DNA of 56,919 nucleotides, counting the filler, from Dimargaris cristalligena (lineage: Eukaryota): NCBI GenBank assembly GCA_003614675.1. It is 4 parts of 4 records of this genome, joined end to end, with 100 filler letters (N's around TTAATTAATTAA, not from the genome) between each part and the next. Parts side by side here need not be neighbours in the genome. Positions count along the whole stretch, not along the records: positions 28,582 to 42,698 come from ML002961.1; 3 more parts are not named here. One strand, given 5' to 3'. Positions within the stretch are counted from its first letter, which is position 1. Each line of letters begins with the position of its first letter. The notes beneath the pieces are model-generated. The model was not told the DNA's origin and searched no databases. It saw only the letters and a program-made list of their open reading frames with translations. Position numbers and translations under genes: made by a program. Shown piece by piece: positions 14,217-54,914 of the stretch.

Positions 14217-14316
14217 NNNNNNNNNNNNNNNNNNNNNNNNNNNNNNNNNNNNNNNNNNNNTTAATTAATTAANNNNNNNNNNNNNNNNNNNNNNNNNNNN
14301 NNNNNNNNNNNNNNNN
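14217..14316. other. Artificial contig linker (N44-TTAATTAATTAA-N44)
   Basis: 100-nt spacer with stop codons in all frames; the same linker occurs at three places. Confidence 0.98.
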
Positions 14317-28481: not shown

Positions 28482-28581
28482 NNNNNNNNNNNNNNNNNNN
28501 NNNNNNNNNNNNNNNNNNNNNNNNNTTAATTAATTAANNNNNNNNNNNNNNNNNNNNNNNNNNNNNNNNNNNNNNNNNNNN
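28482..28581. other. Artificial contig linker
   Basis: Same N44-TTAATTAATTAA-N44 spacer. Confidence 0.98.
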
Positions 28582-40741: not shown

Positions 40742-41014
40742 TACAAATATTCAAACCACTCGATTTCTATATTACCGTATCAGATAATACATTTCATAGC
40801 ATTTATGGAAAACCAACCAAACTCTATCACTAAAAATACACTACAATTATAATTTCCGTAATTATTGGAGTAATTTGACGGTCGTTTTATTAGCTGGACT
40901 GCTGGTTACGATGAGCGCGACTTGTAAACGAGTTGTCGTAAACGTAAATTACTTGGAGATGTCCTACAAATGAATCATTCCAAACGGCAGTATAAGTTAC
41001 CGTTTCACAAATCA

Positions 41015-42134
41015 CTACATTCCGATGTGTATTTTCCTATGTTCTGTGAGATTATTAGATTGTGCGAATGATGCAGGGTAAATAGTACATGTATAAGGCT
41101 TCTCCCCAGTATGCAATCGCATATGCCTCGTGAGACTACCGGACTGTGAAAATGAGTTTGGGCAGATTGGGCAGATATAAGGCTTCTCCCCGGTGTGAGT
41201 TCGTAAATGTGCTGAGAGATGACTGGATTGTAAAAACGACTTCGGGCAATATATGCAGGTAAAGGTCCTCGTCCCGACATGGGCTCGCAAATGTGCCGAG
41301 GGCTTACTGTGCTGTAAAAATAATTTGGGGCAGTTTTCGCAGTTTAAATGTTTCTCCCTGGTGTGTTGGCATATGTTTCTTGAGATTACGAGCGTTGGAA
41401 AGTGATTTTTTGCAAACGTCACGTATATGGGTCTTCGCTTTTGGCCGTGATCCTAAATCGGACTTGATTCGCTTCTGGTCCGACATTGATCGTCCGGCTT
41501 GATCACTGACGGACAGTTTCCGCCTGTTGGGCAATGCCGTGTTTATTTTAGAATGAATGGGCCTCACAGGTATACGTCGGTTGTGACGACGAGTGTCGGG
41601 ATCTAATTCCACTACCTGCCTTACCTGCCGCTGGAGGGGACTGCCTCCGGATGCCAATGTATTTGTAACGGCGGGATCCCAGTCCATAATGGACGGATCA
41701 CCAAGTACTACCGGCTCTAAAAAAGCACGGTCACTCCCACTGCTAGCGTCAGTTGTACCTAATACGCCACCCTCAGCATAGGGAAAGGATCTCGCCGACA
41801 CGAGTTGGTTGCTGAGGTAGTCAGAGCCAAAGTATTTTTCTGACTGGTGGAGTCCTGTGTCATCGGTATTACTCATGGTCGCTTCGAGCTGTTTAATGAA
41901 TTGACCCAATCCGTCCCTATCTAACAGACTTATACGGTCAAATATCAAGGATAGCAGTGGGTTTGTGGAGCGGGGCACTGCGAATGTCCTAGTGACTGCA
42001 GCACTGATACCCAACTGAGAACTATGGGTATAGGAAAACGGGTCGGCTGGGTCAAGTTCGGGATTGTTTGCTTCAGAACCACAAATCATGGACAGTACTG
42101 CCAGAACAACGCTGGATACTTTGAACACACGCAT
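41015..42134 (-). pseudogene. Signal peptide + basic NLS-like segment + five C2H2 zinc fingers (two degenerate); frameshift at ~41361-41366
   Basis: ORF from ATG 42134 (MRVFKVSSVVLAVLSMICGSEA) runs to a degenerate finger RDVC..HMPTH. The finger array continues in another frame (41015-41422) with TGEKPY linkers. Restoring one AC unit in AACACACC joins the two frames. Confidence 0.75.
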
Positions 42135-42698
42135 TTTTGGACAGCTGTTCAAGAATAATTTAAAGTGAAAGATAAAAGAAAGTGGGTTAAGACAAAGACA
42201 AGAAAAAATGACTGTAATGGTTCAACCATTTACCTCTGAAGATATATTTTGCATACAAAATGGATAGTATAGTGAATAACGTACTTTTGACCATGTTCAA
42301 TTTCAAGTATGTGAGAAGAGGGGACATACCATATCGGTAAATACTGGGGTTAGCAAATATATATATATTGCCTGAATGTGTCTATAGATGATGGCGACGA
42401 TGTTTGCAAACAAAGAGTGCTTCCAAGTCTCATAGGGGTGTCCTATGCACCTTAAAGTGTGCGTATGACTAGTATCTGGGAGTATACCATTGTTACACCA
42501 TGTCGCCCGAGTTAACCACTCTTAGTCCGTCAAGAGTCTCGGGGGTAGGCTTCTAACAGTAGGCGGGGCGTTGGACATGGCCAAGCGGGCTACTAGTGTT
42601 AGGGGGGGTGACAAGACTAACCGAATAAAGCAAGCGTAAGTTGTAGGTGAGGTCCGTGCACTAGATGCACACTTACTGGTCAGTACTAGGGGGTGATT

Positions 42699-42798
42699 NN
42701 NNNNNNNNNNNNNNNNNNNNNNNNNNNNNNNNNNNNNNNNNNTTAATTAATTAANNNNNNNNNNNNNNNNNNNNNNNNNNNNNNNNNNNNNNNNNNNN
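42699..42798. other. Artificial contig linker
   Basis: Same spacer. Confidence 0.98.
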
Positions 42799-51574: not shown

Positions 51575-52243
51575 TGGTGACTTATTTCTTCTACTTTTAA
51601 GGCGGGTGTTGAAATGTGCGGACCTGAATCGAAAACGCATAATTGCCAATTGCTTAGTGAGTTATATAATAGTGAAACAAAATATTCGTCGAACTAAGGA
51701 GTTGAAAGTCAAGTAGATGGCTGGTTGGTGGCGATACCGAGCCCTTTCTCATTGAACTGGGTCTATTAATTAGAGTCGATCGGGGCTAATAGGCTCATGT
51801 CGAAGATTTGCCACTTGCTTCATAGCCTGTGTTGCTATTTGCTCCATGCGCAGTTCTTTATTGCTGGACCCAATGGGCTAGCGTATGGAGAAGGCTCTAA
51901 GCCCCCGTTGACGATTGAAACGCAATTGGCTAGCGCTTAAACTAAACATCGCTGTTGAGGGTGTGTTTGTTCACTGGACTTGGCGGTATAGACGGTATTA
52001 TTTTACTACCGCGGGCCCTAGGTCAGCGTCATTGATAAGCACCCCTCATATGCATATTGCTGGGGCGATTTCTATAGGCCTATGTCATTCTATAACCTTG
52101 CCACGTCTCTGACTTATCCACCACCTGTTGTTCCAATAACCTAGGCATTGGTGGAACCTCATCCTCTTTTCCGTCTCCCTCATTTTCCTCGTTCTTTTGC
52201 CAATACCATCTTCTATCCCTCCCCCCCTATTCAGTTCCCGCAA

Positions 52244-54914
52244 ATGGCCATGCTGACTCTGCGCGTGGACCGAACTCCGAACAGCAGCTTGGCTTTGACC
52301 AACCTGCTGGTCATCAACGCCTACAACCTCCCGCCCAACGTCCGCCACGTCATTATCAACGATTTCTACGTCTTCACCGTCTACCCCACCGCCGAGTTTG
52401 ACCGTGCCCTGCTCGGTACTAGCAAAGTGCACCGCCAATGGGCCCGCCTGTCCCTCAACCAAGAAGTCTACGTCGAGCCCTTCCTCTTCGGTTCCCGCGG
52501 CGATACGCTCTTCTACATTGGGGCCATGGACATAGAAGTCAAGTTCCTGGCCCGGGCCACCGAGAGCCGGGAGGAATACGATGCCGATGAAATGAGTATC
52601 CTGTTCAAGTCACTCTACAACGACCAGATTTTCTCGCTCGGTCAGCCCATGGTCTTTGAATTCCACGGCGTTAACCTCGAGCTCAATATCGTCCGTATGA
52701 CGGTGTTGGACGTCAATGAGCTCCGTAACCCCAAAGATCTCCCCCGCCTCGTCCAGGAGCGGCAGCAGCAGGGCCACTCCGACCGGACCCTGGGACCCCT
52801 TAGTCGCTACCGTGGCCCCCGGGGGGAGCCCTTGGTTTGCGGGTTGCTGTTCGGTGAAACCCAGCTGCAGTTCGCCAAGGCCCCTGACTCCAATATCCGG
52901 CTCAAGGGTGCCGCGCGGTCGTCCGCCGCCCGTAACATCATCAAACCCGAATTCAAGTTCGAGGACATGGGCATCGGTGGCCTGGACACCGAATTTAGCG
53001 CCATTTTCCGACGGGCCTTCGCGTCCCGCATTTTCCCGCCCGCCCAGGCGAAAAAATTGGGTATTCACCACGTCAAGGGGATGCTCCTCTACGGGCCCCC
53101 CGGTACGGGTAAAACGCTGATTGCCCGACAAATCGGTAAAATGCTTAATGCCCGTGAGCCCATCGTGGTCAATGGTCCCGAAATACTCAACAAATTCGTG
53201 GGTCAGTCCGAAGAAAATATTCGCAAATTGTTTGCCGAAGCCGAGAAGGAATACAAGGCCAAGGGGGAGGACAGTTCCCTCCATATTATCATATTCGATG
53301 AACTGGACGCCATTTGCCGTCAACGTGGCGCTAAAAGTGATAGCACCGGAGTGGGCGATTCGGTGGTGAATCAGCTGCTCGCGAAACTGGACGGTGTGGA
53401 CCAGCTGAATAACATTCTCGTCATTGGTATGACGAACCGTAAGGAACTGATCGATGAGGCGTTGCTCCGACCCGGTCGTTTGGAGGTGCATGTGGAAATT
53501 GGCCTCCCCGATGAACATGGTCGTCTCCAGATTCTCAAGATTCACACGGCTCAGGTAAGTCCTAGCTTTTTGGTCCACTGCGTTTTTCTTTATATAATTA
53601 TCCCCCGCTCCACTGGAGAATATACTATGAAGAAATTGAAGAGATTCTTAGCAGGAGTCGTGTTGGTAGTTTTAGTTTCACTACATTCTCAAATGACGGC
53701 CCACGATGATCTATTTCTAACCTCGTAATTCCGATTTGCCTTTCCCTGTATTCATTGAACTGGCGGATCTATTCGACTTTCATCCAGATGCGTGCGAACG
53801 ATGTTTTGGGTTCCGACGTGAATCTGAAGGAGCTGGCTATGATGACCAAGAATTTCAGCGGTGCTGAAATCAATGGGTTAGTTCGCAGTGCCTCTTCCTT
53901 CTCGCTCAACCGCCACGTCAAAGTGGGAAGTATGGACGTAACGGCTGCCGATGTGGCCGATATGAAGGTGACCCAGGATGACTTCGTCCAGGCCCTGGGT
54001 GAGGTTAAACCGGCCTTTGGTGTATCCGAAGACGAGCTGCAACTGTGCCACCAAAATGGCATTATCCATTTCAATGCCGGCATCGAACGGATCCTGACCG
54101 ACGGCCGTCTACTAATTGGGCAGGTACAAAAGAGTACCCGTACGCCGCTCGTCAGCGTTCTCCTCCACGGTCCCGCTGGCAGCGGCAAGACCGCCCTGGC
54201 CGCTACTTTGGGTATGGAAAGCGAGTTCCCGTTCATTAAGCTCATCTCCCCGGAATCCATGGTGGGCTACTCCGAACCGGCCAAAATTGGCGCCATCAAC
54301 AAGGTGTTCACCGACGCCTATAAATCCCCGCTTAGCGTCATTATCGTCGACGACATTGAACGGCTCCTCGATTGGGTGCCCATTGGGCCGCGTTTCTCCA
54401 ACGGCATTCTTCAGGCACTGATGGTGTTGCTCAAGAAACCCCCGCCGCCCGGCCGGCGTCTACTCATTTTGGCCACGACGAACCAGAAGGCGGTGCTAGG
54501 GGAAATGGGCATGCTGGATATTTTTAATTCAGAAATCCGCATACCCACAATTCGCGACTTGTCGTCCGTTGAAGTGGTGCTTAAGGTAAGTTGTCCGATG
54601 GTTCGATTAATATTATCTTCAACTGCCTACTTATTTATTACGGGCTGGTTTCATCTCAATGATAACACTAACGGCTTTCTTGATATCATATACCCATCAC
54701 CACTGCAATTCCCCCCCTACTGTGTCTCTAACCATAGGAGCTGGAGGTCTTTTCACCAGAGGAGCGTCACTTTGTTATTAATCGCTTGCACACCGACGGG
54801 ATTGAGCAACACCTCTCACTGGGTATCAAGAAACTGATCATGATTATTGAAATGGCCCGCCAGGACCCTACATCCAAATTGGAGAAATTCATGACCAGTT
54901 TGAACTTGGACTAA
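52244..54914 (+). CDS. SEC18: Vesicle-fusing ATPase NSF/Sec18; exons 52244-53554, 53788-54585, 54738-54914 (a short upstream exon is possible)
   Basis: FEDMGIGGLDTEFSAIFRRAFASRIFPP, GPPGTGKT, IIIFDELDAIC, D2 GPAGSGKT, IGPRFSN, LGIKKL. Confidence 0.95.

Follow-up and report, generated by a model that had tools for sequence, protein, structure and literature searches.

Fungal effectors that carry a DNA-binding domain have been described for Magnaporthe oryzae, in which 20 of 1895 curated secreted proteins have such a domain, half of them of the C2H2 zinc finger type (PMC7672089). MoHTR1 and MoHTR2 of this fungus are secreted and reach rice nuclei (PMC7672089), and MoHTR3 has an N-terminal signal peptide, a centrally placed nuclear localization signal (NLS) and a C-terminal C2H2 domain (PMC10189765). 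Secreted nuclear effectors with this three-part layout are a class shown by experiment for MoHTR1-3 (PMC7672089, PMC10189765), which supports the reading put forward in an earlier note on the DNA analyzed here, that of a fungal parasite's protein exported to act in a host nucleus. The gene described here adds to that known kind of layout. It lies on the minus strand of a stretch of 56,919 nucleotides (filler included) of Dimargaris cristalligena DNA from assembly GCA_003614675.1, the whole of which is referred to as the window, and it joins a signal peptide-like N-terminus to basic clusters and an array of C2H2-type units. Its open reading frames (ORFs) are directly supported, as are a leader-like set of features that is conserved among relatives, the anatomy of the fingers, an indel polymorphism and the narrow distribution of the family. 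From these features the gene and its relatives may encode leader-bearing pre-proteins of a family of secreted C2H2 effectors acting in host nuclei, a reading that is preferred here tentatively and at somewhat less than an even chance.

Members of the Dimargaritales parasitize other fungi, of the Mucorales and Ascomycota, by means of haustoria (PMC3734964); the origin from a parasitic fungus that the earlier note proposed is thereby borne out, but the hosts are other fungi (PMC3734964). Compared by description only, the gene resembles MoHTR1-3 in the order of its parts, from putative signal peptide through putative NLS to C2H2 (PMC7672089, PMC10189765), in being restricted to one lineage, and in being produced by a parasite with an intimate interface to living host cells. 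It differs in having a five-unit Krüppel array and a conserved N-terminal region of ~210 residues, whereas MoHTR1 and MoHTR2 were likened by their authors to the single-finger GAGA (PMC7672089) and MoHTR3 is small (PMC10189765). The host would be a fungus for the D. cristalligena gene and is a plant for the MoHTRs, and secretion, translocation and DNA binding, which have been shown for the latter, are predictions for the former. Likeness in sequence to the MoHTRs beyond the generic C2H2 domain is not to be expected, and the family may work as they do only by analogy. An effector of Colletotrichum graminicola, cited in PMC7672089, reportedly localizes to the host nucleus and has DNA-binding properties; it has in common with the present case the concept of a secreted fungal protein that acts on host DNA. 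A literature search found no paper on secreted zinc finger effectors in Dimargaris, Zoopagomycota or mycoparasites, its one full match being a review on effectors of plant pathogens, and the terms 'zinc finger' and 'signal peptide' are absent from PMC9866270, which gives a genome size estimate of ~20-30 Mb for Dimargaritales.

Leader-like N-terminus, predicted disordered region and zinc fingers

The n/h/c form of a signal peptide that had been noticed at the N-terminus is present on the minus strand as scored by heuristics, and includes an uncharged run of 15 residues (aa 6-20), after which comes a short polar segment whose -3 and -1 positions, counted from aa 23, hold small residues; cleavage-type (-3,-1) sites fall at 19, 20 and 22. 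The best 10-aa Kyte-Doolittle mean of the leader is 3.01, and the 19-aa maximum, 1.73, is at the N-terminus; beyond the first 30 aa this maximum drops to 0.67 for frame A and to 0.34 for frame B, the two frames over which the gene extends in the window (Table 1). Five of five family N-termini (window, P0002, P0004, P0006 and P0008) carry a leader that is hydrophobic and has a (-3,-1) site, a form found at the N-terminus of none of 10 control ORFs of the window, which were read from the first Met with introns and true starts ignored; by this measure the leader is more than chance. In the Sec61 control ORF a 15-aa run lies further in, at 20-34, and is the first membrane segment of that protein. 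The best 10-aa hydropathies of the five family N-termini are 3.01, 2.01, 2.74, 2.70 and 2.73. Four of the five start with MRVFK and have an n-region charge of +2, the charge being 0 in P0004, and Ala-x-Ala precedes an acidic mature end in P0006 and P0008; the weakest leader is that of P0002, in which a Gln cuts the uncharged run to 6 residues. In the window's copy a charge of +2 lies before the hydrophobic stretch and acidic residues lie after it. Under the positive-inside rule the fingers of a membrane-tethered form would then face the lumen and not the cytosol. Inspection under the criteria of the M. oryzae set found no membrane span beyond the leader and no retention signal for the endoplasmic reticulum (ER) or glycosylphosphatidylinositol (GPI) signal; the C-terminus, ...HRKIHIGM, by inspection lacks both an HDEL/KDEL-type end and a tail of hydrophobic residues.

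The gene models of P0006 and P0008 begin 21 codons 5' of MRVFK, with the Met of MRVFK retained in both. In the window the frame stays open upstream of 42134 as far as a stop at 42222-42224, and no ATG falls in frame within this interval. The 21 codons before MRVFK (42135-42197, minus strand) show in-frame similarity to the P0006 and P0008 extensions, and the tblastn match of P0008 to the window begins at 42197; this stretch may have been conserved as a 5' leader or as a start context (CCAAAAATG); alternatively, an upstream start may have been lost.

Behind the leader, the acidic and Ser-rich region of ~200 aa proposed earlier is present as ~210 aa of predicted disorder before the fingers, but its acidity is mild (D+E 21, K+R 16 and S+T 33 of the 177 residues at aa 24-200); the basic clusters that had been listed were all found (Table 1). 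Frame A has no Pfam match, and its AlphaFold2 model from an 8-row alignment has a mean predicted local distance difference test score (pLDDT) of 40.5, consistent with disorder. The model shows a leader helix at aa 3-19, of low confidence, and a few short helices; the motif at aa 59-87 is modeled as helices at 59-69 and 73-88 with a pLDDT of ~50. Within aa 1-246 Cys occurs at positions 18 and 241 only, and frame A has no N-x-S/T sequon where 1.8 would be expected, a difference that is not significant.

As to the fingers, the earlier claim of five tandem units with TGEKPY linkers stands for the five C2H2-type units and for only two of the four linkers, those between fingers 3-4 and 4-5. Frame B matches the Pfam families zf-H2C2_2 (PF13465; E=3.7e-24, 84 bits against a cut-off of 40) in three stretches and zf-C2H2 (PF00096; E=1.1e-11, 44.9 bits against a cut-off of 25.2) in two independent stretches; finger 1, at 18.1 bits, falls below the zf-C2H2 cut-off and covers model positions 5-23 only. 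The complete ligand set (C-x2-C ... H-x3-H) is found only in fingers 2, 3 and 4 of the five, and only fingers 3 and 4 are canonical. Each of the off-consensus fingers 1, 2 and 5 is one base away from the consensus codon (at CGT, CCC and TAC, respectively), the consensus residue at the helix position of the finger 2 Pro being Leu. The closest solved structures, ZNF568 (E=9e-65), Aart, PRDM9, CTCF and Zif268, are of the generic Krüppel type. The likeness to Krüppel-type factors (ZNF568, PRDM9, CTCF, Zif268/EGR1) resides in fingers 3-4 and the TGEKPY linkers, and the mode of DNA binding is presumably the same; the gene differs from these factors in its leader-like N-terminus and in having three of five fingers off consensus. 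Generic Krüppel-type C2H2 factors are nuclear proteins and are not known to carry an export leader. A search with fingers 2-5 gave 3984 matches; the 120 matches listed are all long multi-finger proteins, and every named protein among the matches listed is from an animal, which says nothing on fungal relatives or on paralogues of full length. The single-sequence AlphaFold2 model of fingers 2-5 (pLDDT 33.1) is uninformative on which fingers fold.

Table 1. Positions of the features of the gene within the window
Feature	Position	Strand or location	Description
Whole gene	42134..41015	minus	One 373-codon ORF in the run X5 allele; two frames in the window
Frame A	42134..41304	minus	276 aa; starts MRVFK; leader through finger 1
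Frame B	41359..41018	minus	Fingers 2-5; TAG stop at 41015-41017
Signal peptide-like N-terminus, aa 1-22	42069..42134	minus	n-region MRVFK (+2), 15-aa uncharged stretch, c-region
Best-conserved family motif, aa 59-87	41874..41960	minus	From alignment; predicted helical
DWDPAV motif, aa 151-156	41667..41684	minus	Conserved in the family alignment
Basic cluster 1, aa 182-187	41574..41591	minus	First of three basic clusters
Basic clusters 2 and 3, aa 203-207 and 220-224	41463..41528	minus	Bipartite-NLS-like
Finger 1, degenerate	41361..41426	minus	Arg (CGT) for first Cys; Leu for consensus Phe
(GT)3 run, plus-strand reading	41361..41366	finger 1-2 linker	Extra GT in run X5
Finger 2	41279..41341	minus	Four zinc ligands; Pro (CCC) at conserved helix Leu
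Finger 3, canonical C2H2	41195..41257	minus	Pfam and solved-structure matches
Finger 4, canonical C2H2	41111..41173	minus	TGEKPY linkers on both sides
Finger 5, degenerate	41027..41089	minus	Tyr (TAC) for second Cys

The family and the two alleles

A HMMER scan of aa 1-234 against 1.84 billion representative sequences gave 8 matches at E<=1e-3. Seven of these are relatives: P0001 (the gene model deposited for the locus itself), P0002-P0006 and P0008; the eighth, P0007 (598 aa, repetitive, E=3.1e-4), was dropped as spurious, and no relative of the N-terminal region beyond the seven was found in that set. The three named relatives (P0001, P0006 and P0008) are all from Dimargaris cristalligena. 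Relatives with the same N-terminal region and leader, as the earlier note anticipated, thus exist, the leader being present at every N-terminus available. P0001 is 97% identical over the matched stretch in the search and 94% in the alignment, in which the other relatives share 31-38% identity with the window; the first 103 residues of P0002 and P0006 are nearly the same, and the two may represent a single gene taken from two assemblies. Conservation is concentrated in a helix-prone motif of consensus PPLS..D...Q.D.DGLGQFI.QLE.TM, in the further pieces DYL.NQLV and DWDPAV, and in a basic motif N-[KR]-[KR]-K-L..SD, which in the window and in P0008 is followed by a further basic cluster at the same spacing of 14 residues, counted from the last basic residue to the first (basic clusters 2 and 3 of the window). 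At the position of finger 1 the finger of P0008 is intact (zf-C2H2, 22.7 bits, full model length).

The family layout is effectively invisible in current annotation: P0001 is an 89-aa, mis-spliced 'partial' model that skips 13 residues of the ORF, ends in another frame and has neither leader nor fingers, and P0006 and P0008 are paralogue models of 129 and 211 aa. A word-indexed homologue search with frame A alone gave no match among 1750 candidates, which reflects a limit of sensitivity, given that the full HMMER scan did find relatives. Among metagenome loci there were 89 pattern matches for frame A and 73 for P0003, with no relative in either set, and tblastn found no paralogue inside the window. 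As far as could be detected the family appears to be small and confined to Dimargaris; that it is a fast birth-and-death family, as the earlier note proposed, is plausible.

The stretch was found in five DNA runs labeled with one organism, four of which (X1, X3, X4 and X5) were compared. The contigs of X1, X3 and X4, from one study and two samples, match the window without a gap at a depth of 6-10 and are possibly the data from which the window derives. The X5 contig, from a separate study and at a depth of ~190, covers all 1501 bases and shows three differences from the window: a C>T change at 40985, a G>A change at 42336 and a GT inserted behind 41360. Both substitutions fall outside the coding sequence (CDS). 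The insertion is in the finger 1-2 linker, where the window has one GT/AC unit (2 bp) fewer than X5, and the X5 allele is a single ORF of 373 codons from the leader through finger 5. The finger 1 Arg, finger 2 Pro and finger 5 Tyr are therefore common to both data sets, as there is no other difference in the CDS. It appears that the window copy lost one repeat unit by slippage, a data-set-wide error being less likely; an assembly error is an unlikely cause of the frameshift, since X1, X3 and X4 reproduce the window, and a shared data-set error at a depth of 6-10 keeps some chance. The frameshifted allele is predicted to give a protein that stops after finger 1, at 276 aa, with no working finger. 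The claim of a decaying copy accordingly holds in part: there is a frameshift, but it is confined to the isolate or data set of the window, and the C>R and C>Y changes that had been counted with it are shared by X5. Nor is the frameshift an old lesion, being a 2-base difference in a (GT)3 run, which in X5 has one more GT. If the genes are host-directed effectors, intact and frameshifted states that differ by dinucleotide slippage would resemble the on/off polymorphism found in genes under host-driven selection.

Other contigs of the same runs share pieces of 21-53 bases (~83-95% alike) with the finger and linker DNA at 41058-41387, and the genome therefore has more Krüppel-type finger genes. 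A transposon-borne zinc finger was rejected, as these short finger and linker pieces are all that the other contigs share.

Weighing a host-nuclear effector against other readings

Every cell-biological step on the route of a secreted, host-nuclear effector is inferred, from entry into the ER and cleavage, through secretion, uptake and import into nuclei, to the binding of DNA. The leader would direct the nascent chain to the secretory pathway and be cut after about Ala22, the mature protein would exit the parasite at the haustorium and pass into the hypha of a Mucorales host, and the basic motif would drive its import into host nuclei, where fingers 3-4 would bind DNA with weak help from their degenerate neighbors and host transcription would be altered. 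With the MoHTR precedent this interpretation is plausible. The broader proposition, that Dimargaris has private secreted multi-finger effectors that pass via haustoria into the nuclei of fungal hosts and are independent of the MoHTRs, is to be regarded as doubtful. If the leader works, the occurrence of DNA-binding nuclear effectors would widen beyond ascomycete pathogens of plants and take in an early-diverging mycoparasite that forms haustoria and has a fungus as its host; if it fails, the gene would be a recently frameshifted transcription factor of the ordinary kind, specific to its lineage. The gene is a concrete candidate for a fungus-to-fungus nuclear effector that is open to experiment, and the natural pair of intact and frameshifted alleles allows a direct comparison.

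A number of points weigh against an exported effector. The leader was scored by heuristics of our own, with 10 rough ORFs of one window as controls, and none of the five runs is on record as RNA. An upstream start, as in the models of P0006 and P0008, would make the leader internal. The classic hydropathy threshold for a membrane span is ~1.6, and with a 19-aa value of 1.73 near this threshold the leader keeps a residual chance of being a signal anchor; a cleaved leader is likelier because the uncharged stretch has only 15 residues. Lineage-restricted disordered N-termini, acidic stretches and an NLS are normal in nuclear transcription factors as well. Three off-consensus fingers and a frameshift may indicate relaxed constraint, or a gene that is already functionless. 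The intact leader-plus-finger form that the earlier note looked for exists as the X5 allele of the same gene, but no full-length intact paralogue was seen among the relatives, which are all fragments of 89-211 aa, and the four that extend to the basic region or beyond all stop short of finger 1 or directly behind it. This fragment state could stem from the ends of contigs, from faulty gene models such as the 89-aa model of the locus, from introns or from genuine breaks.

The alternative that survives best, although we hold it to be rather unlikely, is that the gene encodes an ordinary C2H2 transcription factor of the fungus's own nuclei and that its N-terminus does not serve for export; the hydrophobic N-terminus could form part of a helix for protein interaction, or the protein could in truth begin elsewhere, through an upstream exon or a longer start. 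A disordered activation-type region followed by an NLS and C-terminal fingers is the standard layout of a transcription factor, the fingers are generic with ZNF568 as the best solved match, and the neighbors are the housekeeping genes IMPDH, Sec61, class II tRNA synthetase, ATP synthase b and Duo1. It is less easily reconciled with the retention of the full n/h/c leader at all five N-termini while the rest has drifted to 31-37% identity, or with an N-terminal region that has so few relatives among 1.84 billion representatives. On the question of a longer start the evidence is divided, the 21-aa extensions of the P0006 and P0008 models standing against the lack of an upstream in-frame ATG in the window and the MRVFK start of P0002.

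That fingers 3 and 4 and the TGEKPY linkers are fully canonical and score strongly, and that a basic motif with conserved spacing lies directly before the fingers, as in nuclear proteins, argues against a secretory protein with another role, extracellular or in the cell wall, or a pro-protein cut at dibasic sites, in which the fingers are vestigial or serve protein contacts. The mature N-terminal region also has no Cys and no extracellular-type fold. We consider such a protein improbable, with several features nonetheless in its favor: three of the five fingers are off consensus, the frameshifted allele retains the leader and N-terminal region while it loses the fingers, and RR or KR sites lie at aa 182, 186, 204 and 221, just N-terminal of the fingers, where dibasic processing in the secretory pathway would, as an idea, free the finger domain. 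In a language-model search with aa 1-234 the first of the best 10 rows is an unnamed hypothetical protein and the other 9 are named neuropeptide or prohormone precursors or sperm-surface proteins, kinds of protein that are secreted; the best score of 0.86 is below the 0.9 that marks a meaningful match, and for this reading, as for the effector reading, it is a lead only.

A dying gene, functionless in either isolate and a relic of a shrinking family, is a reading that overlaps the others and in itself has a low probability. The window and runs X1, X3 and X4 all have the frameshift, the one-base departures of three fingers are found in both data sets, the relatives are known as short fragments only, and the public model of the locus is a partial protein of 89 aa; but the 373-codon ORF is still open in X5, the two data sets differ over 1.5 kb only by the indel and two non-CDS substitutions, and the family motifs are conserved at the protein level. 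In the window frames of 276 and 114 codons are open as well, and any loss of constraint is therefore recent. Two further candidates were rejected, a mitochondrial presequence because the N-terminus has two basic residues only and an unbroken hydrophobic stretch, and a membrane-tethered transcription factor because its sole hydrophobic stretch, at the very N-terminus, has no more than 15 uncharged residues and would leave the fingers facing the lumen.

Surroundings of the gene in the window

The long ORFs of the window encode a dynein heavy chain, IMPDH, a Zn2Cys6 factor, homocysteine methyltransferase, class II tRNA synthetase, ankyrin repeats, Sec61 alpha, ATP synthase b, DASH Duo1 and AAA ATPases, a fungal housekeeping set. 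Runs of N at 14217-14316, 28482-28581 and 42699-42798, each a pair of 44-base runs set 12 bases apart, divide the window into approximate quarters, a regular spacing that looks like masking rather than natural scaffold gaps. Part of the promoter region is unreadable, as the third pair lies ~565 bases upstream of the gene start.

Two ORFs of the plus strand, at 52145-53728 and 53710-54837, are in different frames and overlap by 19 bases. The first has CDC48_N/CDC48_2 and AAA domains and the second AAA_lid_3 and AAA; together they look like one two-ring AAA ATPase, and the split frames therefore point to an intron or a frame change at ~53710-53728.

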